Positions 26,817 through 53,601 of a stretch of 55,832 nt of DNA are shown here, in pieces. The position numbers and the translations under genes were made by a program. How positions within the stretch are numbered: the stretch's first letter is position 1; each line of letters opens with the position of its first letter. The stretch covers positions 1 through 55,832 of the forward strand of contig CAWIIV010000009.1 of NCBI GenBank assembly GCA_963836205.1, read 5' to 3'. Below the pieces are notes generated by a model. That model was not told the origin of the DNA, searched no databases, and worked only from the letters and a program-made list of their open reading frames with translations. Origin of the DNA: an uncultured Acidimicrobiia bacterium. Its GTDB lineage: Bacteria; Actinomycetota; Acidimicrobiia; Acidimicrobiales; AC-14.

Positions 26817-26835
26817 TTGGCTTAGGTATTCCTAA
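26817..26835 (-). promoter_or_regulatory. IdeR/DtxR-like iron box
   Basis: TTAGGAATACCTAAGCCAA in an AT-rich gap, versus consensus TTAGGTTAGGCTAACCTAA. Confidence 0.65.
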
Positions 26836-26844
26836 CAACTAGAG

Positions 26845-27639
26845 TCAGGTGCCGATGCGGGCCTGGAGTGCCTGCTCCCGAGCGTCGGGGTCGAGGAGGG
26901 GGCAGTTGGTGCAGAAGGCCCCGGGGACGGCCTTGACGATCAGGCAGCAGGTGTTGCGCTCGTACACCACGGCCCGGCGATCGGCGTCGCCGGCCACGGC
27001 CACGACGCCGAGGCCCCGGAGGCGCGAGCTCGGGCGGTCGAGAAGCTCGCGGGCGGCCCGGGCGGCGTCCTCGGCGTCGCCGGTGAGGTCGCCCACCACC
27101 CTGGCCACACCCGACACGTCGGTGGCCAGGTCGCCTCGCAGCCCGCGCCGGCCGAGGCGCCACCGGGCGGCGACGGCAGCGTGGAGGGCGTCGAGGTTTC
27201 CGCCGAGGACGCGGTCCTCCCACCACGCGGCCCGGTCGGGGCCGGGGCCAGGCGGTCCGACGGCGGCCGAGAGCAGGGCGACCTCGCCCGGGTGGTGGCC
27301 GTGGACACGCACGGCGACGTTCTCGCCGCCGGGATCGGGTGCGACGCCCTCGAGGAGGAGGGGGCCGAGGGTGGCGGCGACGACGCTCCACCCCCAGAGG
27401 TAGCAGAACCGCTGCGCCGCCACCCGCGTCCGGACCGCCGGCGGGCTGCCTGGCGGGAACCCGGCGGCGGTGGCGGCCACCATGGCCTCCAGCGTGGGCG
27501 ACGGGCGGTCACCGTCCACCAGGTCGGCGACGGTGAACCACCCCTCCCCGACAGGGCAACCGACCTCGAAGCCGACGGCGTAGTGGCGGGCCCGGAGGCG
27601 GACGCCAAGTGCCGCCAGGTCGGGCTCGCTCAGCCCCAC
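26845..27639 (-). CDS. FhuF-like ferric-siderophore reductase (2Fe-2S)
   Basis: C-terminal RNTCCL-x8-CTNCP cysteine motif; last gene of the siderophore operon. Confidence 0.85.
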   Translation of the reverse strand: MGLSEPDLAALGVRLRARHYAVGFEVGCPVGEGWFTVADLVDGDRPSPTLEAMVAATAAGFPPGSPPAVRTRVAAQRFCYLWGWSVVAATLGPLLLEGVAPDPGGENVAVRVHGHHPGEVALLSAAVGPPGPGPDRAAWWEDRVLGGNLDALHAAVAARWRLGRRGLRGDLATDVSGVARVVGDLTGDAEDAARAARELLDRPSSRLRGLGVVAVAGDADRRAVVYERNTCCLIVKAVPGAFCTNCPLLDPDAREQALQARIGT

Positions 27640-28397
27640 GTGCGTTTGGGGTCGTCGAGGCGGAGACGGGTGAGGGCGAAGATCCCGAAGCCGGCCGCGA
27701 TCAGGGCGAGGACGACGATCGGCCGGGCGACGTCGCCCAGCGCGCCCCCGTCGAGGATGGCGGTGCGGTATCCCTGCATGGCCCAGTAGGTCGGGGAGAT
27801 GGGAGCGATGGGCTGGACCCAACCGGGGAGGACGCTGACCGGGACGAAGCCGCCCCCGATCCCGCCCAGCACCATCGCGCCCAGGTTGGTGACCGCGTTG
27901 ACCTGCTGGATGGTGGCCAGGGCGGCGGCCGCGGCCAGGGCCAGGGCGAGGACGGCGGCACCGAACGCGGCCGACACCGCGGCCATCGCCAGGCGGGAGC
28001 CGGTCGGCCGCATGCCGAGGAAGAGCAGCCCGTAGTCGAACAGGAGGAGGTGCTGGAGGCCGAGCAGGCCGGCGGGCACGGCCAGCTTGCCCGCAAGGAG
28101 CTGTCCCGACGGGATGCCGGCCGCCCGCAGCCGCACCCAGGTGCGCCACCCGTGCTCCCGGAACAGGCCGAAGCCGACCAGGGCCACCGCGAAGAAGGAG
28201 AAGACACAGACCATGCCCGGAACGGCCTGGTCGCCCCCCGACGCGTTCGGGTACCCCTCGGCGACCAGGGCCAGGCGAAGGGCCGGGGCGAGCAGGGCCA
28301 TCAGCACCATCGGCATGGCCAGGAGGAGGACCGCCGGCACCGGGTCGTGGCGGAGCAGCCGGAGCTCGTTGCGCACGACCGCGCCGGTGCCGGTCAC
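27630..28397 (-). CDS. ABC-2 exporter permease
   Basis: About six TM helices, ERxxxTWxRL-like motif (REHGWRTWVRL), SPTYWA; GTGA-coupled. Confidence 0.88.
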   Translation of the reverse strand: MTGTGAVVRNELRLLRHDPVPAVLLLAMPMVLMALLAPALRLALVAEGYPNASGGDQAVPGMVCVFSFFAVALVGFGLFREHGWRTWVRLRAAGIPSGQLLAGKLAVPAGLLGLQHLLLFDYGLLFLGMRPTGSRLAMAAVSAAFGAAVLALALAAAAALATIQQVNAVTNLGAMVLGGIGGGFVPVSVLPGWVQPIAPISPTYWAMQGYRTAILDGGALGDVARPIVVLALIAAGFGIFALTRLRLDDPKRTWG

Positions 28398-29725
28398 CGC
28401 CGCACGTCCGTGGTCGGGACCGGCGCGGCGGCGGTGTCGGGGGGCGCCACGGGCGATCGGCGCCATCGCGGTCGCCGCCGATCAGTCGGGCGCGCCGTGT
28501 TCCCCACCGTCTGTGGAGGATTAGGGGCGCCGGGCGCCCCTTTTGCCACCACGGACCGGTCGGAGGGGCGGATCGGGTCCGCCCCGTGGTCGGCGGCGGC
28601 CACTCCGGCCGACGGCGAGGACGGGCGCGCGGTGGGGGCCGCGGGCGGTCGGCGCCCCCGGCTACGCCGCCGACCGGTCGGCCGCACGGTGGTCCCCACG
28701 GTCGGTGGAGGAGTGAGGGCGCCGGGCGGGGCCGAGGCGAGGTTCGTGGTCGTGTTCGCCTCGGTCTGTTGAGGAATAGGCGCGCCTGGCGCCCCTTTTT
28801 CGCCCACAGACCGGTCGGCGGGCACCGGCGTGCCGGTCAGTTGGAGGTAGGCGGCCTCCAGGGACGGGCGGACGACCTCGACCGAGCGCAGGCGGGAGGC
28901 GTCGTCGCCGATGGCCAACAGCAGCGCGGCCAGGGCGGTGCCCGGGTCGCGGGATGGCAGGCACAGGCGGTCGTCGACCGCTCGGCCCTGCCCCAGCGGA
29001 AGCGGCGCGCCACCGTCGAACTCGAGGACGAGGAGGGGGTCGCCATGTTTGGCCACCAGCTCGTCGACGGGGCCGGCGGCCACGATTCGGCCGTGGTCGA
29101 GGATGGCCACATCGGCTTCGAGGCTCTCGATCTCGGTCAGGAGGTGGGTCGTGTAGAGGACCGACGTGCCGTCGTCGGTCAGCTTGCGGACCGCCTCCAG
29201 CAGCCGGGCCCGGGTGGGGACGTCGGCGCCGGCGGTGGGCTCGTCCAGCAATACGAGCGCGGGCCGGTGGACGAGGGCGATGGCGGCGTGCAGGCGACGC
29301 TGCTCGCCGCCTGAAAGCTGCCCTGCGGTCCGGTCGAGCAGGTCGACGAGCGCGAACGGCTCGGCCAACTCGACCGCCCGCCGGCGGGCCGCGCCCGACC
29401 GCAGCCCGCACATCTCCCCGAAGCAGCGCAGGTTCTGCTCGACGGTGAGGGCGGGGTAGACGCCGATGTCCTGGGGGGCCAGGCCGACCAGGCGCCGGTC
29501 GCGGGCCCGGCCCGACCGGGGGTCACGCCCGCACACCCGCACCGTTCCCGCGTCGGGCCGCACCAGTCCCGCGGTGATCGACACCAACGTGCTCTTGCCG
29601 GCCCCGTTCGGCCCCAGCAGCCCGAGCACCGTGCCCTCCTCGACGACCAGGTCGACCCCGTCGATGGCGAGGCGGTCGCCGTAGCGCTTGACGATCCCTT
29701 CGAGGACCAGGCGGGGCTCGCTCAC
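28394..29725 (-). CDS. ABC-2 exporter ATPase with repeat-derived C-terminal extension
   Basis: GPNGAGKST, LSGGEQRR, LLDEPT, PSLEAAYL; ~140-aa tail containing the palindromic elements. Confidence 0.9.
   Translation of the reverse strand: MSEPRLVLEGIVKRYGDRLAIDGVDLVVEEGTVLGLLGPNGAGKSTLVSITAGLVRPDAGTVRVCGRDPRSGRARDRRLVGLAPQDIGVYPALTVEQNLRCFGEMCGLRSGAARRRAVELAEPFALVDLLDRTAGQLSGGEQRRLHAAIALVHRPALVLLDEPTAGADVPTRARLLEAVRKLTDDGTSVLYTTHLLTEIESLEADVAILDHGRIVAAGPVDELVAKHGDPLLVLEFDGGAPLPLGQGRAVDDRLCLPSRDPGTALAALLLAIGDDASRLRSVEVVRPSLEAAYLQLTGTPVPADRSVGEKGAPGAPIPQQTEANTTTNLASAPPGALTPPPTVGTTVRPTGRRRSRGRRPPAAPTARPSSPSAGVAAADHGADPIRPSDRSVVAKGAPGAPNPPQTVGNTARPTDRRRPRWRRSPVAPPDTAAAPVPTTDVRR
28510..28555 (-). 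repeat. ~46-bp palindromic interspersed element, copy B
   Basis: TCCGTGGTGGCAAAAGGGGCGCCCGGCGCCCCTAATCCTCCACAGA. Confidence 0.8.
28765..28810 (-). repeat. ~46-bp palindromic interspersed element, copy A
   Basis: TCTGTGGGCGAAAAAGGGGCGCCAGGCGCGCCTATTCCTCAACAGA; inverted termini CGGTCTGT/ACAGACCG. Confidence 0.8.
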
Positions 29726-30327
29726 GCCGACGGAGGCGGTGGCGGACGGCGGGTGGTGAGGCGTTCGAACGTCCGCCGCTCGCAGACCATGAAGGCGGCC
29801 CGCTTGTCGGGCATGTCGAACTCGGCCACCTTGCGGTACCCGATGAACGCGAGCAGCGAGAGGAAGTTGTGGTGGTTGACGTCGGGCTCGCCCACGATGC
29901 GGCGGACCTCGGGGCGGCGGAACAGGAACCGGTTGACCGCCATCCCGATGGCCACGCTGTAGCGCCCGAGGTAGTCCTCCTCGCCGATGATCACGTGGGC
30001 CCCGATGTCGCCCGGAAGCACGGGATAGTGGGCCCCGAGGATGTCCTGGGCGGGGTCGTAGACCTCCAGGTACCCGACGGGGACATCGTCGACGAAGCCC
30101 AGGTACGAGTGGCGGGTGGGGTCCTGGTGGTGGCGGAGGAGGTAGTCGTGGATCCAGGCCAGCGGCCAGTCCATGTTCCAGAACTCGACCACATGGGGCT
30201 TTCGCATCCATGCCTGGACCAGGGGGGCGTCGATGTCGGGGGCGATCTGGCGGCACCACAGGCGACGGTCGAGGGCGGCGTCGTACTCCTCGTAGACGGC
30301 CCGCTCGGCCATCACGGGTGTGGTCAC
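29722..30327 (-). CDS. GNAT N-hydroxyamine acyltransferase (AlcB/Rv1347c-like)
   Basis: WMRKPHVVEFW, GYLEVY, DIGAHVIIGE, IVGEPDV.N, FDMPDKRA. Confidence 0.9.
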   Translation of the reverse strand: MTTPVMAERAVYEEYDAALDRRLWCRQIAPDIDAPLVQAWMRKPHVVEFWNMDWPLAWIHDYLLRHHQDPTRHSYLGFVDDVPVGYLEVYDPAQDILGAHYPVLPGDIGAHVIIGEEDYLGRYSVAIGMAVNRFLFRRPEVRRIVGEPDVNHHNFLSLLAFIGYRKVAEFDMPDKRAAFMVCERRTFERLTTRRPPPPPSA

Positions 30328-32108
30328 CGGGTCCACGACGGCTCCAGGGCCAGGGGGTTGTCGATCCAGCCGACGGCCGAGGCCAGCGGGCGTTCGGCGT
30401 GGTCGCCGTAGCCCCGCTCCAGCACCCGGACCCGGTTGAGGCACAGCTTGACGAAGGCGGGGGCGTCGAGGTCGAACAGCTCGTAGCGGCCGGACAGCTC
30501 ACCGGCGAACCGGTCCTGGTAGGCCCGCACGGTGGTCGCGGCCGCGGCCCAGAAGTCCGCCTCCGGGTACCCGAAGTGGTCCTCCAGCAGCTCGGACAGG
30601 TAGCGGTACACGCAGACCAGCACGCCGCCCTGGATCCACTGCACCAGCAGCCGGCTTTCCAGCCCGCCGCCGAGCACCCGGCGCGCCTCGGCCGGCAGCC
30701 CGGCCAGCTCCGGCAGCGGCTCGCAGCTGATCATGGCGTCGTCGACGAAGTCCTTGACCACCAGGCGGGTGGGAGCGTGGTCGCGCAGCACGACCAGGCA
30801 GTTCTGGGAGTGGGGCGAGAAGGTGAAGCCGAACCGGTACAGGACGTGCAGCAGCGGCGGCAGGACGGCCTCGTGCAGGCGGCGGACCCAATCGTCGACA
30901 GTGATGCCGCTGCGGGCGATCACCGGGTCGAGGAACGGCGTGCCCCAGGGGTCGCGGTGCAGGAGGGCGGCCATGGTGACGGCCCGCTCGTCTGCCGCCA
31001 GCCGGGGGGCCACCGGCTCCCGCCAGATGGCGCCCAGCAACTCCGTGTGCTGGTAGGGGACGTCGGGGATCGACTCCATGGCCCGGTGGGCAACGCTCAC
31101 GCTGGCCGTCTCCCCCAGCAGGACGAGGCCCGTCTCCACGAGGAACGGGTCGGCTGCGGTAACCGTGAGGAGCCACTCGGTGAGCGCGGGCGCGACCAGG
31201 CTGCGGGCCCGGGGCAGACCCCGGTACACGGACGTGTTGAGAACGGAGAGCGGCAGCTTCACCCACCGCCGGTCGGGATGGTCGACGTCGACGAACGTGC
31301 GCAGGGACTGTTGGGGCAGGTAGCGGCAGGGGCCCGGCCCGAGGGGGACGATCGCCCGGCGGGCGATGTCGCCCGCGTGCAACGGGACGATGCGGTTGCT
31401 CCACTGCCACGGGTGGACGGGCAGGTACGTCGCCCGGTCGGGGTCGAGGCCGGCGGCGGCGGCGCGCGATCGGAACCCGTCGAAGGCGTCGTCACCCACC
31501 TGCTCCCGGACCACGGCCGCGTTGTCGAGGCCGCGGACGTCGGCCCGATCGGGCTGCACCGCCAGCCACGGCAGCGTCACCGGCAGGCAGGACTCGGGGG
31601 CGTGGGCGAGGAGATCGTCGGCGTCGAAGCCCAGCCGGCCCTTGTTGGCCACGATCCACGGGTGGCCCCGCATCTCGGCCTCGACCACGAGCGGGTCGAG
31701 GTCGGCCAGCTCCGCCGACGGACGGCCGTGGGCCAGTTGGTAGGTGTCGGAGAGGAGGGTGTTCGCCAGTTCGACCACCGCGTTGGCCGTGGTCGACGGG
31801 TCCACCCCGATGACGGGCGCCAGCATGGCCACCAGGTCGGCCACGTCGGGCAGGGCCGCGGGCTGGCCCGCGACGGTCCAGGTGAGCGAGGCCGGGTCGA
31901 CCCGCCACTGGCCGAGGAACCGGAGGCGGGCGGTGAAGGTGAGCTCGGCCACGCCCTGCAGGCCCAGACGGAAGGTGTCGTCCACCCGCTCCGGGGTCAA
32001 CAGCTCCTCGAACATGAACTCGGTGAGGAGCTTGGCCACCAGCTCGCGGTTGGCCCGGGCCCACCGCTCGGCGTCGAGCCCGAACTCGGCGGGAAGACCG
32101 ATGCTCAT
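30324..32108 (-). CDS. NIS siderophore synthetase (IucC/RhbF-like)
   Basis: GHPWIVANKGRLGF, PVHPWQW, QQSLRT, KLPLSVLNT, HSQN, KDFVDD, KLCLNR. Confidence 0.93.
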   Translation of the reverse strand: MSIGLPAEFGLDAERWARANRELVAKLLTEFMFEELLTPERVDDTFRLGLQGVAELTFTARLRFLGQWRVDPASLTWTVAGQPAALPDVADLVAMLAPVIGVDPSTTANAVVELANTLLSDTYQLAHGRPSAELADLDPLVVEAEMRGHPWIVANKGRLGFDADDLLAHAPESCLPVTLPWLAVQPDRADVRGLDNAAVVREQVGDDAFDGFRSRAAAAGLDPDRATYLPVHPWQWSNRIVPLHAGDIARRAIVPLGPGPCRYLPQQSLRTFVDVDHPDRRWVKLPLSVLNTSVYRGLPRARSLVAPALTEWLLTVTAADPFLVETGLVLLGETASVSVAHRAMESIPDVPYQHTELLGAIWREPVAPRLAADERAVTMAALLHRDPWGTPFLDPVIARSGITVDDWVRRLHEAVLPPLLHVLYRFGFTFSPHSQNCLVVLRDHAPTRLVVKDFVDDAMISCEPLPELAGLPAEARRVLGGGLESRLLVQWIQGGVLVCVYRYLSELLEDHFGYPEADFWAAAATTVRAYQDRFAGELSGRYELFDLDAPAFVKLCLNRVRVLERGYGDHAERPLASAVGWIDNPLALEPSWTR

Positions 32109-33403
32109 CCCGGCTCCGAGCCGAACGTCTGGAACACGTTGCGGGACCGCACCGGGAGGACCTCGCGGCCGCAGACGGCGTTGAGGATGACCGCGTTGCG
32201 GTGGGCGCCCAGGCCGAGGTCGGGCGCGCCGACGCCATGGGTGTGGAGCTCCGCGTTCTGCACGAACAGGCGGGACTTGTCGTGGTCGACCAGGCGGAGC
32301 CGGAAGTCGGCGTCGATCACCGGCCGGGCGGCGGCGTCCCGCTCGACCAGGCCCGGATCGATGGGAAGGGGGGCGGGGCGGTAGCCGGTGGCGAGCACGA
32401 CCAGGTCGGCGTCGTGGGTGAGGGCGACGTCGTCGTCGAGATGATGGAGGTGGAGGCGCACGCCGGCGGGTGTGGACTCCACGCCCCGTAGCTCGCACGT
32501 CGACCGGTAGGTGACGCCCGCCTCCGGCCGGTCGATGGTGCGCTCGTAGAGGCGGTCGTAGATGCGGGCGCTGGTGTCGACCGAGATGCCCTTGTAGAGG
32601 AGGTCCTGGCCGGAAAGAAGCTGGTCACGGGTGTCTTGTGTGAGGCCGTGGAACCACTCGCCGTACTCGGGGGAGAAGTGCTCCAGGCCGAGCTTGGAGT
32701 ACTCCATGGGCAGGAAGCCCCGGCTGCGGGTGAACCAGTCGAGGCGCCGGGTGCCGTCGGTCGGCAGGGCGTCGAGGAGGTCGGCGAACACCTCGGCCGC
32801 GCTCTGGCCCGACCCGACCACGGCCACCGAGCCCGCGGCCAGCGCATCGGCCCGGTGGGCCAGGTAGTCGGCCGAGTGGAAGACCCGGGGCCCGAGGGCG
32901 CCGGCCGCGCAGGCGGGCACCGTCGGCCGGGTGCCGACTCCGAACACGACCGCCCCCGCCCGGTGGACCTCCTCCTCGCCGCCGGGCCCGTGGACCGCGA
33001 CCGTCCACCCGTCGGCGCCGTCGCCCGCCGGCGCCACCGACTCCACCCGCCATCCGAACCGGCACGACGGCAGGCTCCCGGCCACCCACCGGCAGTAGGC
33101 CTCGAACTCCTGGCGGGGGATGTGGAAGCTCTCGTAGAAGTAGAAGCGGTAGAGCCGGCTGCGGCAGTGGAGGTAGTTGAGGAAGCTGCAGGGGTTGGTC
33201 GGGTCGGCCAGCGTGACCAGGTCGGCCAGGAACGGCACCTGGAGCCGAGAGCCCTCCACCATCAACCCGGCGTGCCAGGAGAACTCGGGGCGGGCCTCGA
33301 AGAAGGCGGCGTCGAGGCCGTCGACCTGATCGGCCAGGGCAGCCAGGCCCAGGTTGAACGGACCCAGGCCCACGCCGACCACGTCCCACTCCCGATCAGC
33401 CAC
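32105..33403 (-). CDS. Flavin N-hydroxylase (IucD/RhbE-like)
   Basis: GLGPFNL, LQVPFLADLVT, GSGQSAAE, LATGY, QNAELHTHG. Confidence 0.95.
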   Translation of the reverse strand: MADREWDVVGVGLGPFNLGLAALADQVDGLDAAFFEARPEFSWHAGLMVEGSRLQVPFLADLVTLADPTNPCSFLNYLHCRSRLYRFYFYESFHIPRQEFEAYCRWVAGSLPSCRFGWRVESVAPAGDGADGWTVAVHGPGGEEEVHRAGAVVFGVGTRPTVPACAAGALGPRVFHSADYLAHRADALAAGSVAVVGSGQSAAEVFADLLDALPTDGTRRLDWFTRSRGFLPMEYSKLGLEHFSPEYGEWFHGLTQDTRDQLLSGQDLLYKGISVDTSARIYDRLYERTIDRPEAGVTYRSTCELRGVESTPAGVRLHLHHLDDDVALTHDADLVVLATGYRPAPLPIDPGLVERDAAARPVIDADFRLRLVDHDKSRLFVQNAELHTHGVGAPDLGLGAHRNAVILNAVCGREVLPVRSRNVFQTFGSEPG

Positions 33404-33947
33404 GAGCGGCGTCCGCCGGCGGGAACCGAGCTGCGAACTCGGCCCGGGTGCACGCGAGGAGCAGGGCCCGCTTGTCGGGGAGTTGGAGCACGGCCAGGGG
33501 CAGGTGGGCCAGGCGGAGACACAGGCGGATCATGCGGACGTTGCGGGCGTCGGGCTCGCACACCACCCGGTCGGCGTCGGGGTCGGTCAGGAGTTGGCTC
33601 ATGACCGCCCGTCCCACGCGGTGGGCCAGGCCGGTGCCGATGAGCTCGGGGGGACCCACCAGGACGTGCCAGCCCCGGTCGCCGGCGGTCGCCGGGTAGT
33701 AGCGGGCCAGAGGGTCGGCCGCGGCCCGGTAGGTCTCCACGTAGGCGACGGGCCGGCCGTCGGCGCTCGCGACCCACGGAAGGAGGTGGGCGAGCGCGGC
33801 CTGGGTCTCCAGGTAGGCGCGCACACCCGCCGGCGAACGGTCGACGTCCCACCACGGCACCACGTGGGGCTGGTTCATCCACCCGTGGAGGAGGTCGGCG
33901 TGGCGGTCGGGGTCGGCCCGGTCGAGCGTGATCCCAGGCATCGTCAC
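33396..33947 (-). CDS. GNAT N-hydroxyamine acetyltransferase (RhbD-like)
   Basis: WMNQPHVVPWW, YVETY, DRGWHVLVG, VCEPDARN, LPDKRA; GTGA-coupled. Confidence 0.9.
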   Translation of the reverse strand: MTMPGITLDRADPDRHADLLHGWMNQPHVVPWWDVDRSPAGVRAYLETQAALAHLLPWVASADGRPVAYVETYRAAADPLARYYPATAGDRGWHVLVGPPELIGTGLAHRVGRAVMSQLLTDPDADRVVCEPDARNVRMIRLCLRLAHLPLAVLQLPDKRALLLACTRAEFAARFPPADAARG

Positions 33948-35620
33948 CGGAGGGGGTTGGGCACCGTCACGTACACCGACTGGGTGGCGATGTCGCCGAC
34001 CAGCTCGTCGAGGTCGTGGAGGCGGGTGGCGAGGTTGGCCTTGCACGGCCACCGCTCGTCGTCGAGGAGGCGGTCGAGGAGAGTGGGGGGGTAGCGGCCG
34101 CCGGCGGCGCGCTCGGCTTCGAGCAGCCGGCGAAGGTCGGCCAGGAGCACCGTTTCGTCGCCGCAGCCGGCGGCGCCCAGGGCGTTGATCACGCCCAGGG
34201 TGAGGTTGAGGAAGAGGTAGTAGACGAGGCGCTCGTCGGCCAGGGCTTCCGGGAAGATCGACTCGGTGGCCTCGCCGAGCTTCGGGATCACCCGGCACAT
34301 GTCGTCGTGGGCCAGCTCCCGGTGGAAGTAGCCCTGGCTGTCCCGGTAGATGCCGGCGGCCGGCCACCCGTCGTCCAGCTCGACCAGGGTGTTCTGCTGG
34401 TGGGCCTCGAAGCACAGGCCGACGTCGAGGTAGAGGCGGACGAGCGACCGCACGACGACGTCGCAGAACCGGGCGAACCACTCCCGGCCGACGTCGGTGG
34501 GCGCCCGGCCGTGGCGGGCGGCGATGGCGGCGACGATGGCGCCCAGCCGGCTCGGCCCGCCACCGGGGCGGTCCTGGCAGAGGGTGGTGAGGGCGGAGAC
34601 GTCGGCCCCGGCGGTGACGGTGTTGTCCCGGAAGAGGACCGAGAATCCGGGGTGGCAGGCGCTGAGGTAGGCGGGGTCGTGGACGAGGCGGAAGTGGGGG
34701 GCGACGGCTCGGGTGCGGTCGCCCACCCCGGTGGCAGCCAGCCGGGCCGCCTCCACTGCCCGGTCGAGCTCCTTGGGCAGGGTGACCCGCATGGAGTTGG
34801 TGACCCGCACGTGGAGCGAGAACTTGAGCTGCCACGGCCAGTCCGGGTGGTGGACGGTGCGCACCGAGGTGGTGGGGGCGACCTCGGGGCCCGCCGGCCC
34901 GAGGTCGACGACGGCGCCCGAATCGAACTGGGCGGCGAGGCCCGGTTGCCGGCGGAGGAATGCCGCTTCCCAGGGATGGGCGGGGAGGACGACGCGGCCC
35001 CGAGGGAAGCGGCGGGCGTAGAGGGCGGCGGCCAGCTCGGGGGCGGGCGTGCCGGTGGCGCTGGCGTGGCGGACGAGGTCGGCGTCGATCGAGAACCAGT
35101 GCAGGCGGAAGCGGGCGCCGGCCTCGGGGGCGTAGGCCAGGCGGTCGGCCGGGCTCATCTCCGACCGGCTCTTGGGCGTCGGGTGGACGAGGTGGCCGAG
35201 GAGGAGGGCCTGCTCGGTCTCGGCGAAGGAGAGCGGCCCCGGCCCCCACAGCCGGTCGATGTCGGCGGCGCGCCGGTCGAGGTACCCGGCGGTGTCGCGC
35301 GTGCTGTCGAGGATCCGGGAGAACAGCTCCGTCGGCGGGGCGGCGCCGGGGCCGAGCTCGTCGAGGAGGAGGGCGACGAGGGTGGTGTAGGCGACCGGCC
35401 GGGGGCAGGCGCCGCCGAAGGAGACGTGGGCCGGCAGGTCGAAGAGGTGGCGTCGGGTGGGCGACAGGTAGCGGAGGCCGACCCGCAGCTCGGCGTTGGA
35501 CCGGGTCAAAGGGACCACTGCGGTGGGCCCGTCGTCGACCCGCCAGCCCTCGGCCTCCCGGAGGTAGCAATTGAGGACGGCGTGGGTGGAGGCGCCAACC
35601 GCCTGGTCGAGGGCCGTCAC
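33944..35620 (-). CDS. NIS siderophore synthetase (IucA/RhbC-like)
   Basis: LNCYLRE, EQALLLGHLVHPTPKSR, PTTSVRT, KFSLHVRVTNS, EAHQQN, YRDSQG, KANL.TR. Confidence 0.93.
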   Translation of the reverse strand: MTALDQAVGASTHAVLNCYLREAEGWRVDDGPTAVVPLTRSNAELRVGLRYLSPTRRHLFDLPAHVSFGGACPRPVAYTTLVALLLDELGPGAAPPTELFSRILDSTRDTAGYLDRRAADIDRLWGPGPLSFAETEQALLLGHLVHPTPKSRSEMSPADRLAYAPEAGARFRLHWFSIDADLVRHASATGTPAPELAAALYARRFPRGRVVLPAHPWEAAFLRRQPGLAAQFDSGAVVDLGPAGPEVAPTTSVRTVHHPDWPWQLKFSLHVRVTNSMRVTLPKELDRAVEAARLAATGVGDRTRAVAPHFRLVHDPAYLSACHPGFSVLFRDNTVTAGADVSALTTLCQDRPGGGPSRLGAIVAAIAARHGRAPTDVGREWFARFCDVVVRSLVRLYLDVGLCFEAHQQNTLVELDDGWPAAGIYRDSQGYFHRELAHDDMCRVIPKLGEATESIFPEALADERLVYYLFLNLTLGVINALGAAGCGDETVLLADLRRLLEAERAAGGRYPPTLLDRLLDDERWPCKANLATRLHDLDELVGDIATQSVYVTVPNPLR

Positions 35621-38367: not shown

Positions 38368-38421
38368 CTCCGTAGGTCGGAGAGTAGAACAGATTGTGTT
38401 CCCAATGCCTTATTCTTCTAC

Positions 38422-38440
38422 TTAGGCTAGCCTAATTCCA
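38422..38440. promoter_or_regulatory. IdeR/DtxR iron box in divergent promoter
   Basis: Perfect palindrome TTAGGCTAGCCTAA (38422-38435) overlapping a -10-like TAGCCT 6 nt before ATG 38440. Confidence 0.85.
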
Positions 38441-39257: not shown

Positions 39258-39322
39258 GGCGGCGGCGAAGCCAACCGGTGACGATTATCGGGGCCCTGAC
39301 CCCGCAAAGTGTCACCGGTTCG

Positions 39323-45400: not shown

Positions 45401-48400
45401 GTCGACGACGCCGGGGATCTCGTCCGGATGGAGGCGAAGCCCCCCGGGTCGGGAGAGCAGCTGGTGGCGGAAGCCGACGGTGACTGCGGCGTGCGGCTCA
45501 CGATGTCGATACCCGGGCTTCGCCGCCCGACCGACCACCTCGAGCTGCGGCTGGAGGCAGGGGTGGTCGTCGACGGCCCCGGCCGCCGGGCCGCGTTCTA
45601 CCGGAACGTGCTGCTGGGCGACGTCGCGCCCGGACTGCGCCGACCCGTCGGAACCGGTGGAGACGGCGTGGGTGTGCGATCCCGGTCGGGTCGCCTCGTA
45701 CCGGGCCACAACCGGTGCCGCCCACGACGGCGTTCCCCTCGACCTGGCCTTCTCCCTCGCCTGGCCCGGCCTGGCCGCGCTGCTGGCGGCCGGCGGGCTG
45801 GCCGCCTCGTTCGGCAGCCTCGTCCACCACGAGCACCGGGTCACCGCCGGTGGCGCGTGGCCGCCCCGACCCGGCGAGCGGGGCCAGGTGACGACCCGGG
45901 TGGAGCGGGTCGTCGACGTCGAAGGCGGTCGCCGGATCGAGTGCCGGGCCGAGGTCCGTTCGGCTCGCGGACCGCTGGCCACCGTGGTCGCCGGTCTCCT
46001 GGTGCGGACCGCGAACACCGGCGTCGACGAGCGGCGCACGGGGCCGAGGACCGTCGCCCTGGCGGACCAGGCCGAGGCCGATCTGGTGGCCGAGCAGCCG
46101 TGGATCCGCTTCCGGCCGGGCGTGGTCCTGGCGCCGGGTGACCGGCTGACGGTCGATGGCGGCACCGTCGAACGGGCAGGCGAGGTCGTGGCCGAGGTCG
46201 CCGACGACACCCCCCTCGACGCGCTCCTCGCCGTCCTCGAGCACCGTCCCGACGAGCGCCGTCCCCGTCCCCGGCGCCCGCTGGCCCAGGCGGCCGACCT
46301 GGCCCCCCAGTCGATGCGGTCCTTCGCCCTCGTCGGCGGCGACCACAACCCGTTGCACCGCTCGGTCCTCGCCGCCCGCCTCTCCGGGCTCGACGCGCCC
46401 GTCGTCCACGGCCTGTGGACCGCGGCCCGCGCCGGCGCCTTCGTGGTCGACGAGGTGTGCGCCGGCGAACCGTCCCGACTGCTCGATTGGAGCGTCCGCT
46501 TCGTCGCCCCCGTCGCCCTCGGCACCGCCATCGACCTGGAGGCCACCGGCGTCGCGGTGGAGGCGGGGGGCGAGCGGGTGGAGATGGTCGTCTCTGCCGG
46601 GGGGACGGTCGTGGCCACCGGCGAGGCCCTCGTCGGCCCGCCGCCCACGGCCCTGCTCTTCCCCGGACAGGGAGTGCAGGCCCCCGGCATGGGTGCCGCC
46701 GGCCGGTCGAGGTCGGGCGCGGCGCGAGCCGTGTGGGCCGGAGCCGAGGCCTTCACCCGGTCCCGGCTGGGCTTCTCGCTGCTGGAGGTGGTCGACGACA
46801 ACCCGCTCGCCCTCCGGCTGGCCGACGGTTCGACGCTGCGCCACCCATCCGGAGTTCTGTTCCGCACGGAGATGGCCCAGGTGGCCCTCGTCGCCCTGGC
46901 CGCGGCCCAGGTGGCCGAGTTGGAGGAGGAGGGCGACCTCGGCCGCCACTCCCGATTCGTCGCCTGCGGGCATAGTGCGGGCGAGTACGGCGCCCTCGTC
47001 GCCCTCGGCGTCCTGTCCTTGCACGTCGCCCTCGAGCTCGCCTGGCGGCGGGGCCTCGCCCAGCAGGCCTGTATCGCCCGGGATGCGAGCGGCGGGTCCA
47101 ACTACCGGCTGGCCGTCGTCGACCCCCAGGCCGCAGGCCTCGACCTCGACGAGCTGACGGACCTGGTCGGGAGCGTGGCCCGGTCCACGGGCGAGCTGCT
47201 GGAAGTGGTCAACCACAACGTCGCCGGCCGCCAGTACGCCATCGCCGGTACCGACGTCGCCATCGCCGCCCTCGGCCGGCGGATGAAGGTGCAGGTCGTC
47301 CCCGGGATCGACATCCCCTTCCACTCCTCGGCCATGGCCCCCGCGGTGCCGGCCTTCCGGGCCCACCTGGAGGCCTTGGTCCCCGAGCTCGACCCCGGTC
47401 GCCTGGTGGGACGGTGGATACCCAACCTGGTCGGCCGGCCGTTCTCGCTGGATCCCGCCTTCGTGGCCGATGTCGCCCGCCTCACGGACGAGCACGACCT
47501 GTTGGCGGGAACCGGCAACGGCACCGGCACCGACCCCCGCCGGCTGCTGATCGACCTGCTGGCCCACCAGCTGGCCAACCCGGTGCGATGGGTGGAGACG
47601 CAGGTGGCGCTCGGTGGACTGGCCCAGCTGGTCGAGGTCGGGCCGGCCGAACACCCAGTCCTGGCCAACCTGGCCCGGGCCACCTTCGCCGGCCACGCCC
47701 GCCCGCCGGTGGTCAGCCACGTCGAGCTCGACCGGGTCGACGCCACCACCGGCCCGCCGCCAGAACCGACGCCGACGCCGGCGCCCTCGCCGATGGCCGT
47801 CGCCAAGGCATCGGGGCGCCCGGTCGAGGACTCCGAGGTCGACGCCGGGAGCGCCTTCCGGATGGTGCTCGCCGTCCAGGCCCGCATCCGGCCCGACCAG
47901 ATCCGAGGCGACGAGACGATGGACGAGCTGTTCGGCGGGGCGTCGTCCCGCCGCAACCAGGTGCTCGTCGACCTCGGCCGCGAGCTGGGCCTGTCCGGAT
48001 CGGAGGGCTTCCAGGACCTGCCCGTCGACCACCTGGTCGGCGAGTTGCGGGCCCGGGTGACCCGGTACCGCTTCCCCGGTCCCTACCTGCGCGACACCAT
48101 GGCCGCCGGCGTCACCCGGGCCCTCGGCGGCTCCGGGATCTCCCGAACCGATGCCCTGGGCCACCTGGGCCAGCGGTGGGCGCTCGGCCCGGGCCTGGCC
48201 GAGCAGGTGCTGGCCGGGCTCGTGCTCGACACCCGCCCCGGCCCATCGGCGCGGGGAGGCGCCCTCGGGCGCCTGGCCGGCGACCCGCCCGCGACCGTGG
48301 GCGAGGGGCGGGCCCTCGTCGATCGGGCCGTCGGCCTGGTCGCAGCCGACCTCGGCCTCGATATCACCCCGCCCGTCGACTACGCCGCCGCGCCGGTCGA

Positions 48401-51400
48401 CGCGGCCGCGGTGGCCGACCTCGCCGGCCGGCTGGAGGGCGCCCTGGTGGCCACCGCCCGCCATCTGGCCGCCGCCCTCGACCGCCCGTTCGCCACCGAC
48501 GGCGACCCGCTGCCCCGGCCCGACCCCGACCACAGCCGATTGGCCGCCCTCGATGCAGAGCTGGGCCCGGGCCGGTCCGAGGAGGTCCGGCCCCGGTTCG
48601 ACCACCGCCGCCACGTGCGGTTCGCGTCGGCCTGGGCCGCGGCCCGATGGGACCTGGTCGCCTGCTACCACGACGCTCTCGCCGGGCGCCTCGACCTCCC
48701 CGCCCTCAGGACCGAGGTCGACCGCCTGGCCGCCTTCGGCGACGATCCCGCCTTGGCCGACATCGCCCGCTGGCTGGCGGGCCGGGCCTCGGCCGGCGGC
48801 CGTCCCGACGTGGCCACCGCCCTGGCCGCCGTCACCCCCGCCCGCCGCACCCCGCTCCCCGTCCCCACCACCCGTCCAACCGTCGACGTCACGCCGACCG
48901 GCGAGATCGTCCCCGGCGAGACGCCGGACCCGTCCGGCAACGACCTCTGCCACCACGTGGCCCTCGTCACCCGTCCCACGGTCGACGCCACGCCCACCGC
49001 CGAGATCGTCGCGGCTTCTGTGGTCGGAAAAGGGGCGCCACGCGCCCCCAAACCAACTACGGACGCCGACCTCCGCCACCACGTGGCGCTCGTCACCGGG
49101 GCCAGCCCGGGCTCGATCGCGGCCGAGGTCGTCCGCCACCTCCTGCGGGGTGGGGCGACGGTGGTCGTGGCCACGTCGACCGACACGCCCGGCCGGCGCC
49201 GGTGGTACCGAGACCTCTACCGTCGGGCAGCGGGGCCGGGCGCCGAGCTTCACGTCGTGCCCGCCAACCTGGCCGCCTTCGCCGACATCGACGCCCTCGT
49301 GTCCTGGCTCGAACGGCCGGAGGTGCCCCAGCGGGGCCGGCCCGACCTCCGCCTCGACCCGCTCGTGCCGACGATCGTCGTCCCCTTCGCCGCCGTCCCC
49401 ACCGTGGGCGACCTCACCGAGGCCGGGGCGGCGGCGGAGACCGCCGTCCGCATCCAGCTCCTCGGCCTCGAGCGCCTCGTCGCCGGGATCGCCGGCCTGG
49501 CCGCCCGCCGCGGCGGTGCCGACCGCGTCACCGTCATCCTCCCTCTGTCCCCCAACCAGGGCGCGTTCGGCGGCGACGGCGTCTACGGGGAGACCAAGGC
49601 CGCCCTCGAGGTGCTCATCCGCCGCCGGCGCAGCGAGCACGACGGATGGGGCCGCCACGTGCGACTGGTGGCGGCCCGCATCGGCTGGGTGCGGGGCACC
49701 GGCCTCATGGGGTGGAACGACGCCGTCGCCGCCCTGGTCGAGGAACGCCTCGGCGTGCGCACCTTCTCCGCGGCCGAGATGGGATCGCTTCTCGCCGCCG
49801 GCGCCGTCGCCGGCACCCCCGAGGTCGACCTCATGGGCGGGCTCGACGGGATCGACGACCTCCGGGCCGCGGTCCTCCCCCTCGCCCAGGAGCTGGCGGC
49901 CCGAGCGGCGGCCGCCCGACGGACCGACAGCCTGCGCACCGCACTGGCGGCCCGGATGGCGACGCCTGCGCCCGACACGCCGGCCGCCCTCCCGTCGACC
50001 CCGACCGACACCAGCGCGCCCGCCCACGACCCCGGCCCGAGCCCGCGGGCCGTCGACCTCGACCCGTCCCAGATGGTCGTCATCGTCGGCACTGGCGAGC
50101 TGGGCCCGTGCGGGTCGGCCCGCACCCGGTTCGAGCTCGAGGCCGACCACGATCTCTCCCCCGACGGTGTCGCCGAACTCGCCTGGCTCACCGGCCTCGC
50201 CACCTACCGGCGGGACGGGTACCGGGGCCGGTGGGTCGACAACGCCACCGGCGACGACGTGGCCGAGGAGGACCTCGCCGGTCGCTACCGGTCCGACGTC
50301 ATGGCCCGCGTCGGCCTCCGCCTGCTCGAAGCCGACGGCGTCGTCGACCCCGACGGCCTGTCGGTGCTGGCCACGGTCCACCTCGACCGCGACCTCACCT
50401 TCGAGGTCTCCTCGGCCGACGAGGCCCGCAGCTTCGTCGACCTCGACCCCGCCCACACCGACGCCCGTCGCGACCCCCAGACCGGCGCCTGGCGGGTAAC
50501 CCGGGCCGCGGGCGCTCCGATCCGGGTGCCCCGCCGGGTCCGCCACACCCGGCGGGTGGCGGGCCAGTTCCCCACCGGCCTCGACCTGGCCCGCTACGGC
50601 ATCCCCGGCGACCTCCTCACCGGCGCCGACCGCATGGCCCTCGTCAACCTGGCCTGCACCGTCGAGGCGTTCTGGGACGCCGGCCTCGAGCCGGAGGACC
50701 TCCTTGCGCACGTGCACCCGGCCCTGGTGGCCAACACCCAGGGCGCGGGCCTCGGGGGCATGGGCTCCCTGCGCCGCCTGCTCATGGACTGGCTGCTCGA
50801 CGACGAGCGCCAGTCCGACCGCCTCCAGGAGTCGCTCGGCAACGTGATCGCGGCCCACGCGGTGCAGGGCCTGATCGGCTCCTACGGACCGATGGTCCAC
50901 CCCGTGGCCGCGTGCGCCACCGCCGCCATCTCGCTGGAGGAGGCGGTCGACAAGATCGTGGCCGGCAAGGCCCTGGCCGTGGTCGCGGGCGGGTTCGACG
51001 ACCTCACCCCCGAGGGCATCGTCGGCTTCGGCGACATGCAGGCCACCGCGTCCAGCGACGAGCTCGACGCCATGGGCATCGCCCCCGGCGAGTCGTCCCG
51101 GGCCAACGACGTGCGCCGGCGGGGCTTCGTCGAGGCCCAGGGCGGCGCCACCCTCCTCGTGGTCCGGGGCGACGTGGCCCTCGAAATGGGTTTGCCGGTG
51201 CGGGCCGTGGTCGCCTACGCGGCCAGCTTCGGCGACGGGATCAACGCCTCCATCCCCGCCCCCGGCATGGGCATGCTGGCTTGTGCCCGGGGCGGCTCCG
51301 ATTCGCCACTGGCCCAGGCCCTCAACCGCCTCGGGCTTACAGCCGACGACATCGCCGTCGTCTCCAAGCACGACACCTCGACCGAGCTCAACGACCCCAA

Positions 51401-51974
51401 CGAGGCCGACCTCCACCAACGGGTCCAGGACGCCCTCGGCCGCACCGCGGGCAACCCCCTGCTGGTCGTGTCGCAGAAGACCGTCACCGGGCACTCCAAG
51501 GGGGGCGCCGCCGCCTGGCAGGTGGACGGGGCGGTGCAGATGATGGAGACGGGCATCGTCCCCGGCAACCGGACCCTCGAGAGCCTCGACCCCCTGCTGG
51601 CTCCGTTCCACCACCTCGTCCACGGCGACCGCCCCATCCGCCTGGCCCCCGGCGAGCAGATCCGGGCCTGCCTCGTGACCAGCCTCGGCTTCGGCCACGT
51701 GTCGGCCGTGGTCGCCCTGGCCCACCCCGACCTGTTCCTGGGCGCGGTGCCCGCAGCCCGCCGGGACGAGTACCTCGGCCTCGCCGCCGCCCGCCGGGCC
51801 CGGGGGGCGCAACGCCGGCTGGCCGCTCGCCTGGGCCGTCCCGGGCCGGTGCGGCGCACCGACCGCCGCTTCGGGCCCTCGGGGCCGGCGGAGCGGGAGG
51901 CGGAGGCGGCCATGCTGGTGGACCCGTCCGCCCGCCTGGGCCCCGACGGCTCCTACCGCACCACCCGCCCGTGA
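42479..51974 (+). CDS. fas: Type I fatty acid synthase, mycobacterial/corynebacterial type (AT-ER-DH-MPT-ACP-KR-KS), 1-nt frameshift near 45630
   Basis: AT GHSQG; ER GMTPTT, FKPG, GGHHSWED; DH GDHNPLH..VHGLW; MPT FPGQG, GHSAGEY, PFHS; ACP GASSRRNQ; KR ALVTGASPGSIA, PLSPN, YGETK; KS VAACATA, SKHDTST, GHSKGG. About 3,160 aa once ORFs 41435 and 45372 are joined. Confidence 0.93.
49017..49063 (+). repeat. ~47-bp palindromic interspersed element, copy D, in frame within fas
   Basis: TCTGTGGTCGGAAAAGGGGCGCCACGCGCCCCCAAACCAACTACGGA, similar to the copies at 28510 and 28765. Confidence 0.78.
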
Positions 51975-53518
51975 TCGTCGGCGTCGGCATCGACATCGTC
52001 GACGTGGACTCCTTCGCCCACCAGTTGGACGACGAGGCGTCGGCGTTCGTGGCGACCACGTTCACCCCCGCCGAGCGCCGGGTCCCCGGCGGGGGCGTCG
52101 ACCGCGACCGGCGGGCCCGCCACCTGGCCGCCCGCTTCGCGGCCAAGGAGGCCTTCGTCAAGGCGTGGTCGGGTGCCCGCCGCGGCCTCGCCCCGTCGGT
52201 GCCCGACGTCGACCTGCGGGAGATCGAAGTCGTACCAGACGGGTACGGGCGCCCCGGCCTGCGGCTCCGGGGCCGGGTGGCCGAGGCCGTCCGGGCGCTG
52301 GCCGGGGACGACGAGGTCCACCCGCACCTCTCGCTCACCCATGACGGGCCGGTCGCGGCCGCGGTGGTGGTCCTCGAAGTACTCCAGCCACGCTGACACC
52401 GGGTCGACCTCAGGCACCGGCTCGGGATCGTCGGGCTCGGGCTCGGGCTCGGGAAGCGTCGCCGGCATCGAGATCGGCCCCCACGCGGGCTCCGTCTCCG
52501 ACTCGAGGTCCGGCTCGAGGTCGGGTGTGAACCGGTCGGGCGCGGCGTCGGGCGCGAACTGGTGCTCGAACTCGGCGAAGTCGAAGTCGACCGCGATGTC
52601 GTCGGCGTCGTCGTCCGGTTCCCGCACCCAGTCGGGCTCCACCACGACCGCGGCTGCGGCCGGGACGAGCCGGGACCGCAGCCGGTTCCGCCACCCGAGC
52701 AGCACCAGTTGCACGATGGCGGCCACCGAGACCACGCCCAGCCACGGATGGGCGCTGCCCTCGACCTGGAACCCGGCCGGTTGGTCGAGCCCGGTGACGT
52801 CGCCCCGCACCGTGTAGGAGCCGAACGCCACCGGCCCGAAGTCCAGCGACACCACGAACACCCGCTCCTCGCCCGGTGCCAGCGAGCCGAGACGGGGGGC
52901 GTCGACCAGTCCCGACGGATGCTCGCCCCGCCCCACGGCGATGGTGAAGGCGGGGTCGGCGACGACCACGTTGCCCACGTTGCGGACGGTGAACGAGACC
53001 GTCCGGCGGGGCGGCGCCCCGAACCACGCCGTCCAGGGACCGCCGCCTGCGATCTCGGCCCCGACGATCTCCAGCCGCCGGTCGCGCCGGTCGGCCGGAT
53101 CGACGACCCGGGCCTCGGGGGACGTGCCGTCGAGGGTGATCGGCACCACGACCGACTGAGGACCGCCGGCGCTGGTCGCCCGCACCACGCAGGGGCAGGC
53201 CACCGGGGGCACGGCCAGGGTGAGCAGGGTGGCGAAGCTGCCGTCGGCCTCGACGGGCACCGTGACCGCCCGCCCCTGGTCGCAGTCGGGCGACCCCCGC
53301 CTGGCCTGGTTGCCACACACCTGCACCTGGGCCAGGCGGGCCGCCGGCCACCCCTCCCCCCGCACGACCACCGGCGCGCCGACGGTCGTCGCCGACGCCT
53401 CCACGGCGAGGGTGGGGGCCGGTTGGGCGGTCGCCGGGCCGACGCCGAACAGCCCGCCGACGGCGCAGAAGACCGCGGCCGCAAGGGTCGTTCGAACTCC
53501 CGGCGATCGTGCGTTCAG
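51953..53518 (-). CDS. Secreted/membrane protein with neocarzinostatin-like and Ig-like domains, TM helix and acidic tail
   Basis: Signal peptide read in frame from CTG 53518 (GGGAG RBS); VRGEGW..QVCGN..DCD, CPCVV; FTVRNVGNV; TM. The 3' end overlaps acpS antisense and is uncertain. Confidence 0.7.
   Translation of the reverse strand: MNARSPGVRTTLAAAVFCAVGGLFGVGPATAQPAPTLAVEASATTVGAPVVVRGEGWPAARLAQVQVCGNQARRGSPDCDQGRAVTVPVEADGSFATLLTLAVPPVACPCVVRATSAGGPQSVVVPITLDGTSPEARVVDPADRRDRRLEIVGAEIAGGGPWTAWFGAPPRRTVSFTVRNVGNVVVADPAFTIAVGRGEHPSGLVDAPRLGSLAPGEERVFVVSLDFGPVAFGSYTVRGDVTGLDQPAGFQVEGSAHPWLGVVSVAAIVQLVLLGWRNRLRSRLVPAAAAVVVEPDWVREPDDDADDIAVDFDFAEFEHQFAPDAAPDRFTPDLEPDLESETEPAWGPISMPATLPEPEPEPDDPEPVPEVDPVSAWLEYFEDHHRGRDRPVMGEREVRVDLVVPGQRPDGLGHPAPEPQAGAPVPVWYDFDLPQVDVGHRRGEAAAGTRPRLDEGLLGREAGGQVAGPPVAVDAPAGDPALGGGERGRHERRRLVVQLVGEGVHVDDVDADADDHGRVVR
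51971..52396 (+). CDS. acpS: Holo-ACP synthase (AcpS-type PPTase)
   Basis: VGVGIDIVD, FTPAE, LAARFAAKEAFVKAWS, HLSLTHDG; GTGA-coupled to fas. Confidence 0.95.
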   Translation: MIVGVGIDIVDVDSFAHQLDDEASAFVATTFTPAERRVPGGGVDRDRRARHLAARFAAKEAFVKAWSGARRGLAPSVPDVDLREIEVVPDGYGRPGLRLRGRVAEAVRALAGDDEVHPHLSLTHDGPVAAAVVVLEVLQPR

Positions 53519-53582: not shown

Positions 53583-53601
53583 TTAGGTTAGCCTTACTCC
53601 A
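53583..53601. promoter_or_regulatory. IdeR/DtxR iron box
   Basis: TTAGGTTAGCCTTACTCCA in the AT-rich divergent intergenic region. Confidence 0.85.

Follow-up and report, generated by a model that had tools for sequence, protein, structure and literature searches.

An accessory type I fatty acid synthase joined to a siderophore locus in an uncultured Acidimicrobiia bacterium: a candidate lipid-tail supply for an amphiphilic siderophore

Contig CAWIIV010000009.1 of an uncultured Acidimicrobiia bacterium from soil (assembly GCA_963836205.1), whose 55,832 bp are termed the window in what follows, carries a gene (fas) for a type I fatty acid synthase (FAS-I), joined by overlapping reading frames to a siderophore importer operon and divergent from an operon for a nonribosomal peptide synthetase (NRPS)-independent siderophore (NIS). 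We think it probable that FAS-I, together with the holo-acyl carrier protein (ACP) synthase AcpS encoded behind it, is a dedicated, iron-regulated source of acyl chains for a lipo-siderophore like rhizobactin or synechobactin, as a sequence-only reading of this stretch had proposed. Comparative genomics supports that interpretation as far as such comparison reaches; of the refuting conditions named in that reading, none that computation could check was found to hold. We also lean, on balance, towards a wider reading, in which a distinct FAS-I lineage has turned into a secondary-metabolism enzyme induced by iron starvation within an NIS cluster; with an AcpS of its own, it would pass CoA-activated chains to a cluster-specific acyltransferase to give an amphiphilic citrate-hydroxamate siderophore, and the FAS–NIS cassette would have moved between Acidimicrobiia and Thermoleophilia.

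In outline, the locus would be an island of the iron regulon that makes a hydroxamate-citrate siderophore similar to schizokinen, rhizobactin 1021 or synechobactin and has its own source of lipid tail. The leftward operon would make 1,3-diaminopropane by means of a transaminase and a decarboxylase, with N-hydroxylation following. Two different enzymes of the Acetyltransf_8 family, here AT8-1 and AT8-2, would acylate the hydroxylamine, and two IucA/IucC synthetases would attach the two arms to citrate. An ABC-2 exporter would release the product, an ATP-binding cassette (ABC) importer would take it up and a FhuF-like protein would free the iron. AcpS would activate the carrier domain of FAS-I and FAS-I would make acyl-CoA, from which AT8-2 would transfer the chain to one hydroxamate arm, AT8-1 placing acetyl on the other; the resulting siderophore would be amphiphilic. 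A repressor of the DtxR/IdeR family, acting at the palindrome TTAGG-N4-CCTAA, would turn both operons on under iron scarcity. From sequence we infer that the genes of each operon are co-transcribed, which regulator acts, what the acyl donor and the product are, and how the acyltransferases divide their labour.

The window is the entire contig C9 (55.8 kb) of a 4.05-Mb host genome in 25 contigs, 88.6% complete. Gene content was called by Pfam and NCBIfam profile matches over the open reading frames (ORFs) of the window. Comparisons used a class sample and a phylum sample of 401 genomes each, a relatives set of 61 genomes and two samples centred on genome G759, one of its class (n=251 genomes) and one of its family (n=111 genomes). 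G and L numbers denote related genomes and loci; G000 is the host's own genome and L016 is the locus of the Paraconexibacter genome G820.

Linkage of FAS-I to the siderophore genes

The plus-strand operon, starting at 38440, leads from importer genes into fas and acpS:

38440-39576 as listed, plus strand: importer ABC ATPase (Pfam ABC_tran)
39254-40330, plus strand: siderophore-binding lipoprotein (Pfam Peripla_BP_2)
40327-41370, plus strand: FecCD permease 1 (Pfam FecCD; GTGA overlap with the binding-protein gene)
41367-42482, plus strand: FecCD permease 2 (Pfam FecCD; GTGA overlap)
42479-51974, plus strand: type I fatty acid synthase, AT-ER-DH-MPT-ACP-KR-KS (Pfam domains in this order)
51971-52396, plus strand: AcpS holo-ACP synthase, second copy in the genome (Pfam ACPS; NCBIfam NF000831, 135 bits, above cut-off)

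The last five of these genes are chained by GTGA stop/start overlaps. Those at 42479 and 51971, by which the sequence-only reading had linked the importer to fas and fas to acpS, are present as described, and two further ones lie at 40327 and 41367; the overlap of permease and fas is kept in L013, L014 and L015. A consensus promoter scan, which is a weak method for a GC-rich organism, gave no promoter-like site and two terminator-like sites against 1.6 expected. The importer ATPase probably ends near 39,240, because homology to its relatives stops near residue 262. For the binding lipoprotein the best NCBIfam match is the Fe(3+)-dicitrate binding-protein family, under its cut-off. FAS-I is collinear with an intact 3329-aa Paraconexibacter protein across residues 6-3324. 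Catalytic motifs of such synthases (ER GGHHSWED, DH GDxNPxH, MPT GHSxGE, KR TGAxxGSI, and the KS Cys and His) are conserved in the host protein and in its clade members wherever sequence is available.

This FAS-I is accessory rather than housekeeping, since the host has a separate FAS-II operon and a separate AcpS, and the occurrence of FAS-I is patchy. The FAS-II operon, fabD-fabH-acpP-fabF, lies at C8:186098-190709, and there are further ketoacyl-ACP synthase (KAS) genes, including tandem ones on contig C14. The latter had raised the idea of a mycolate actinobacterium as host, which was dropped because the closest FAS-I relatives are from Acidimicrobiia. The other AcpS, on C17, scores better than the copy at 51971-52396 and has orthologues in congeners that lack FAS-I. 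FAS-I is thus not the only FAS of the host, a point that the sequence-only reading had named as something to be checked. FAS-I itself was found in 3/401 genomes of the class sample and in 3/61 relatives, namely the host and two of its seven congeners (3/8 of the genus), with none among the 29 genomes of the family's other genera. Around G759 the figures are similarly low, at 3/251 for the class and 2/111 for the family. FabH scored above its curated cut-off in all five other FAS-I clade genomes tested.

The nearest relatives of the window FAS-I are from metagenome-assembled genomes (MAGs) of uncultured Acidimicrobiia (91%, 81% and 60% identity), and the protein of Paraconexibacter sp. AEG42_29, of the class Thermoleophilia, is 58% identical. 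In a careful tree (26 rows, 500 columns) the window protein falls in a clade of eight with support 100/100, made up of the host, G771, G774, L015, Paraconexibacter G820, G759, G846 and G596. A quick tree (27 rows, 1241 columns), made before G846 joined, gave support 100 for the seven members then available. Both trees used the N-terminal and central parts; the short loci L057, L059, L061 and L062 were excluded from them, and L058 and L053 (one long branch, one duplicate) were excluded from the careful tree. Ten mycobacterial-like sequences form another clade, and sequences from other Acidimicrobiia and from metagenomes likewise stand outside that of the window. The description of the enzyme as mycobacterial-type therefore holds for its domain order but not for its descent: with a separate 100/100 clade, presence in 3/8 congeners and FAS-II alongside, it lies outside the housekeeping lineage of mycobacteria and corynebacteria.

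Membership of this clade goes with the siderophore genes. All eight members come from genomes or contigs that carry this NIS type or its importer, which bears out the linkage in relatives that was to be expected under the proposal. Seven of the eight are genomes, and one NIS cluster type, complete with AT8-2 and ABC-2 exporter, is common to them all; the eighth, L015, is a 7.3-kb contig that shows the importer–fas junction only. Orthologues of IucA/IucC synthetase 2 at 59-64% identity are limited to genomes that carry this FAS-I clade. Of the 251 genomes in the class of G759, precisely the three with FAS-I have the IucC orthologue, at 61-64% identity; one more has only a 35% homologue. Across the 401-genome phylum sample, orthologues at >=64% are confined to G596 and G759, plus the host; the next tier (45-48% identity) comprises seven genomes, all without FAS-I. 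Among the 61 relatives, only the host, G771 and G774 have both FAS-I and an NIS orthologue; G772 lacks FAS-I, and its NIS genes are of another type (36-47% identity).

Where linkage can be judged, in six genomes, FAS-I and NIS genes lie at most 14 kb apart in every case, in four arrangements. In the first the importer is fused to fas (host, G771 and G774; L015 has the junction). In Paraconexibacter G820 there is a 6.6 kb gap with an ideR-family gene inside, in G759 the two sets are 14 kb apart, and in G846 they are convergent and 0.9 kb apart. As a control, the surroundings of fas (20 kb upstream, about 10 kb downstream) were inspected in the 12 other FAS-I genomes of the phylum sample: ten were free of NIS and importer genes, the exceptions being G759 and G596, both members of the clade. 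In G704 the distance between fas and an IucC homologue is 2.2 Mb. Outside the clade, L017 (a Nanopelagicales MAG) and G352 and G364 (other Acidimicrobiia) carry fas-acpS of another FAS-I clade with no NIS genes nearby. A metagenome scan with the FAS N-terminal alignment yielded 11 loci at 29-54% identity; their available flanks hold no importer or NIS genes, and all that could be placed fall outside the NIS-linked clade. As a separate observation, a conserved gene directly precedes fas in G759 (L039 1-290) and G846 (C25 about 23660-24100), and its product ends in an Arg/Lys-rich, repeat-like tail; the product of L016 8252-9334 has a similar tail end.

The minus-strand NIS operon, from 38367 down to 26845, comprises the following genes:

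37030-38367, minus strand: diaminobutyrate--2-oxoglutarate transaminase, rhbA-like, the operon's first gene (Pfam Aminotran_3; NCBIfam TIGR00709, 424.5 bits, above cut-off)
35672-37033, end approximate, minus strand: pyridoxal phosphate-dependent decarboxylase in the rhbB position (Pfam Pyridoxal_deC, 157 bits)
33944-35671, start approximate, minus strand: IucA/IucC-family synthetase 1 (Pfam IucA_IucC)
33396-33947, minus strand: AT8-1, first Acetyltransf_8 acyltransferase, in the rhbD/iucB position (Pfam, 156 bits; synteny with plasmids pSymA and pAQ7)
32105-33403, minus strand: amine N-monooxygenase, IucD/RhbE-like (Pfam Lys_Orn_oxgnase, 371 bits)
30324-32108, minus strand: IucA/IucC-family synthetase 2, in the rhbF/iucC position (Pfam IucA_IucC plus FhuF)
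29722-30444, minus strand: AT8-2, second Acetyltransf_8 acyltransferase, candidate fatty-acyl transferase (Pfam, 146 bits)
28394-29752, minus strand: exporter ABC ATPase (Pfam ABC_tran; GTGA start overlap)
27630-28466, minus strand: ABC-2 type permease, putative siderophore exporter (Pfam ABC2_membrane; kept in G759, G820, G846 and G596)
26845-27639, minus strand: FhuF-like putative ferric-siderophore reductase (weak FhuF_C match, E 0.0076, under the Pfam cut-off)

Pfam thus finds the two acyltransferases that the sequence-only reading had seen in the divergent operon. Inspection of the junctions showed these genes to be as tightly coupled as those of the plus strand: the ATGA start of the decarboxylase overlaps the transaminase stop, an in-frame GTG of AT8-2 at 30327 overlaps the IucC stop, and the GTG start of the FhuF-like gene overlaps the permease stop. 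The FhuF-like protein has a C-terminal Cys motif and orthologues in G771 and G774. The pairing of a diaminobutyrate (DABA) transaminase with a decarboxylase is that expected for making 1,3-diaminopropane, from a presumed substrate. The two IucA/IucC genes, the N-monooxygenase and the IucB-like acyltransferase stand in rhb order, and the locus is collinear with pSymA and pAQ7. In the host assembly the decarboxylase and synthetase 1 form a single 1271-codon ORF (33944-37759, minus strand), which is either a fusion or an assembly artefact; several indels relative to G771 occur at 35595-35689, near the junction of the two. An AAC(6') resistance identity was considered for both acyltransferases and rejected, as the NCBIfam matches were far below threshold and are attributed to the GNAT fold.

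A signature of lipidation is AT8-2, whose gene directly follows IucC in 7/7 FAS-linked clusters. Of the seven nearest clusters without FAS-I, six were fetched, and each of them is ordered as rhbA-F and has just one Acetyltransf_8 gene. The seven AT8-2 sequences group in a clade of their own (100/100) with short branches, AT8-2 being more conserved than AT8-1. Its relatives in the PDB are MbtK, Rv1347c, DfoC and SidF, and AT8-1 likewise has siderophore N-acyltransferases of known structure as relatives; for both window enzymes MbtK ranks among the best such matches (E 1.6e-19 and 1.5e-20). Two Acetyltransf_8 copies are also present in both known amphiphile loci checked, pSymA and pAQ7. A common lipid-acyltransferase clade of AT8-2 with the second enzymes of Sinorhizobium meliloti and PCC 7002 was tried and rejected, the latter lying on long separate branches. 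By analogy with the known loci, the product may be a citrate dihydroxamate with one fatty-acyl arm. A reason for recruiting FAS-I is suggested by general biochemistry: a GNAT-type enzyme needs acyl-CoA, and it is CoA esters that a bacterial FAS-I releases, the product of FAS-II being acyl-ACP.

Repeats occur in both operons of the host. A 126-nt in-frame insertion (42 codons) lies at about 48979-49104, in the FAS-I linker just ahead of the KR NADPH motif. A direct duplication of 38 nt flanks it (region 48941-49104), and within it lies an inverted copy of a palindromic repeat with the core GGGGCGCC..GGCGCCCC. L013 is without this insertion, and L014 has a different one at the same spot. The same repeat is found twice between the exporter ATPase and permease genes (28496-28567 and 28751-28822), and in the host assembly the final ~140 codons of the exporter ATPase cross these two copies.

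IdeR-like palindrome and neighbouring genes

Three sites of one palindromic motif lie on the window:

38422-38435, no strand: perfect 14-nt palindrome TTAGGCTAGCCTAA, IdeR/DtxR-like, in the 72-nt divergent intergenic region
26822-26835, no strand: exact TTAGG-N4-CCTAA palindrome between the FhuF-like and ferritin-like genes
53583-53596, no strand: one-mismatch box TTAGG-N4-CCTTA, 15/19 IdeR positions, directly upstream of the gene for a 687-aa protein; kept in L014 at 21664

The site at 38422 ends 4 nt ahead of the importer ATG and is identical in L013 and L014. It had been taken for an IdeR box. The 19-nt consensus for that box is given as TTAGGTTAGGCTAACCTAA in the part of the source consulted (PMC4598388), and the site agrees with it at 14/19 positions in either register, so what stands of the earlier assignment is a perfect palindrome that is not due to chance, and the site is better described as IdeR-like than as a canonical IdeR box. 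TTAGG-N4-CCTAA occurs in the 4.05-Mb genome four times exactly and six times with one mismatch, and 3 of these 10 sites (26822, 38422 and 53583) are on the window contig; this exceeds chance. Counts of the motif in five related genomes exceed those of a reversed-pattern control 1.7- to 4-fold, and in G774 9/17 sites fall within one 52-kb stretch (210-262 kb) of a single contig around the locus.

In G846, G759 and G820 the palindrome precedes the NIS operon. A further, exact box of G820 lies 626 nt ahead of fas (L016 9360-9373) and is one of four exact sites in 5.8 Mb; a small ORF (L016 9428-9974) lies between this box and fas and ends 11 nt before fas. The ideR-family gene of G820 (L016 7485-8459, minus strand; domains Fe_dep_repress, Fe_dep_repr_C and FeoA) lies in the gap that separates fas from the NIS genes. 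In G596 a box with one mismatch stands about 20 nt ahead of fas. For the Acidimicrobiia lineage no signal other than the box at the importer promoter is visible upstream of fas.

The host encodes two DtxR-family genes (Fe_dep_repr_C). On contig C25 a small PadR-like ORF next to a Bfd-like [2Fe-2S] ORF (G000:C25:50463-51441) has an exact palindrome on either side (51131 and 51428), and this PadR-like protein, not IdeR, could be the regulator that uses the motif. A second inverted repeat, TAGAACAG..CTGTTCTA, is present at 38383-38402, in the divergent intergenic region that holds the IdeR-like box and upstream of that box; it is conserved, and perfect in L013 (5944-5965).

Next to the cluster is a ferritin-like gene (25910-26521, minus strand), which has an exact palindrome about 300 nt ahead of it. 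On the other side, an ORF of 483 codons with one transmembrane segment (51953-53404, minus strand) converges on acpS and remains open antisense across the whole of acpS. Beyond it, the ORF at 53604-55667 (plus strand) encodes the 687-aa protein, which has no Pfam match and consists of two similar halves with Thr-rich linkers; it has an LPNTG-like motif and two hydrophobic anchors, and may be an iron-regulated surface protein.

The FAS-I frameshift and alternative readings

Several points weigh against FAS-I as a dedicated tail donor. The genomes of the clade are related to one another, and the island may have been transferred whole, so that the counts overstate independence, and co-transfer alone could hold unrelated genes together. 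In G759, 14 kb separate fas from the NIS cluster; contig ends break the G596 locus, where linkage cannot be judged, and L015 is limited to the importer. To the imperfect match of the 38422 site to the IdeR consensus is added that G759 and G846 have no palindrome (<=1 mismatch) near fas, G846 having none with <=2 mismatches within 1.5 kb upstream of fas. Internal promoters within the permease genes are possible. AT8-2 and the second acyltransferases of pSymA and pAQ7 are, as judged from the trees, parallel in architecture and not in descent. Finally, if an extra base at 45628 in the assembled fas is real, the host strain would be unable to make FAS-I.

The same facts allow FAS-I and AcpS to be a passenger of the island, that is, a self-contained second FAS whose job is unrelated to the siderophore (e.g. 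membrane-lipid remodelling) and which is transferred or lost with it as a block. Both gene sets are patchy and have probably spread horizontally; fas-acpS is a self-sufficient pair, with acpS directly after fas in 11/12 FAS-I genomes of the phylum sample; and the 14 kb of other genes in G759, like the lack of a box at fas in G759 and G846, would suit such a pair. We nevertheless regard this account as unlikely, as the linkage has outlasted at least four rearrangements and divergence to 54-64% protein identity with no uncoupled case in the samples searched. Moreover, a conserved 4-nt overlap fuses fas into the importer operon in the Acidimicrobiia lineage, the extra acyltransferase is present only where FAS-I occurs, and there are boxes upstream of fas in G820 and G596.

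In the host assembly FAS-I is not one open frame: the frame changes near 45,630, where the assembly has one extra base, at 45628, relative to G771. The sequence-only reading had missed this, and the gene is split into two frames, 42479-46141 and 45372-51974. By contrast, fas is a single ORF in G771, G820, G759 and G846. Among sequencing runs, none of RNA contained the locus; two soil-metagenome runs matched it (shares 0.09 and 0.04) and yielded fragments of relatives, the source reads of the host not being among them; a 151-nt contig of a relative from one of these, run X2, spans 45628 without the extra base.

Taken at face value, this would mean that the module is decaying in the host, with FAS-I a pseudogene and the siderophore made without it: the reading frame is broken in the host assembly, and the extra base is absent both in G771 and in the short-read contig from run X2. 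Such decay is distinctly unlikely. The extra base is likelier an assembly error, because other housekeeping genes are split as well, isolated 1-nt indels relative to G771 occur throughout the locus, and the single frameshift in fas of G774 lies elsewhere in the gene. The split genes are the host fabH (C8:188488-189451) and one fabF-like gene (C8:76230-77437), each matching its family in two adjacent frames, which suggests indel errors assembly-wide. Both halves of FAS-I, furthermore, retain coding-type GC content at third codon positions and intact motifs.

Very improbable is a role of FAS-I in iron acquisition other than tail donation, for example through vesicle or envelope lipids that retain or deliver the siderophore, or through a different acceptor; the co-regulation signals and co-location fit any function under iron limitation, and the acyl donor of AT8-2 is a candidate only, but this would leave the strict co-appearance of AT8-2 and FAS-I unexplained, and no lipid-modifying or vesicle-related gene is found among the ORFs of 26845-52396.

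Comparison with known systems

Amphiphilic siderophores are well known, among them rhizobactin 1021, the synechobactins and acinetoferrin, and the origin of their fatty tails is largely unsettled. If FAS-I does supply the tail, a cluster with its own FAS-I would explain that origin for one lineage, and this would be the first bacterial FAS-I dedicated to a specialised metabolite in the literature searched. The sequence-only reading had been aware of no FAS-I/NIS pairing, and a full-text literature search likewise found no published one. The distribution of FAS-I extends beyond the mycolate group and bifidobacteria: Acidimicrobiia and Thermoleophilia of soil have it as an accessory that is rare and mobile. 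For genome mining, a simple rule would follow: where IucC is followed by a second Acetyltransf_8 gene, a lipidated product is to be predicted.

The rhizobactin 1021 locus (rhbABCDEF) on pSymA of S. meliloti 1021 has the same gene order as the window, from DABA transaminase and the decarboxylase slot through IucA, Acetyltransf_8 and N-monooxygenase to IucC, at 36-50% identity. Its host is Gram-negative, with uptake of the TonB type. A second Acetyltransf_8 homologue lies about 4 kb past the rhbF homologue on pSymA, outside the rhb operon, whereas AT8-2 is inside the window operon after IucC, and the two are not orthologous; no FAS-I or AcpS is present in the 89 kb of pSymA examined. The portion seen of one source (PMC2848241) gives rhizobactin 1021 as schizokinen with one (E)-2-decenoyl tail.

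The synechobactin cluster on pAQ7 of Picosynechococcus sp. PCC 7002 has, in order, a DABA transaminase, a second aminotransferase-family gene, IucA/IucC, GNAT and N-hydroxylase genes. An 813-aa protein encoded next combines an N-terminal IucC with a C-terminal Acetyltransf_8, the same order of IucC and then AT8 as in the window, but the second acyltransferase is fused to IucC on pAQ7 and is an overlapping gene in the window; the second AT8 domain of pAQ7 is also on a long separate branch, and the exporter is of the MFS type instead of ABC-2. The cluster has no FAS-I or AcpS nearby. Synechobactins are schizokinen with C8-C14 saturated tails, according to an excerpt of PMC6562677.

The fas-acpS pair of the Mycobacterium/Corynebacterium type shares domain order and catalytic motifs with the window FAS-I. 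It belongs to another clade and has no NIS or importer gene within 20 kb, whereas the window FAS-I is patchy, stands beside FAS-II and is fused to an importer operon. FAS-I of the Mycobacterium/Corynebacterium type is the main or only de novo fatty acid synthase of its hosts.

Comparable to the step proposed for AT8-2 is that of the mycobactin module, where MbtK, of the Acetyltransf_8 family common to the window enzymes, adds a long acyl group to the hydroxylated amine of a siderophore. Mycobactin lipidation has a dedicated supply of lipid and is IdeR-regulated, and the chain comes by way of an acyl-AMP ligase, a free-standing ACP and a dehydrogenase. None of these three, as a stand-alone acyl-AMP ligase, carrier protein or dehydrogenase, is found among the ORFs of 26845-52396. 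In the window a whole FAS-I would take their place, and the scaffold is of the NIS type, where that of mycobactin is made by NRPS and polyketide synthase enzymes.

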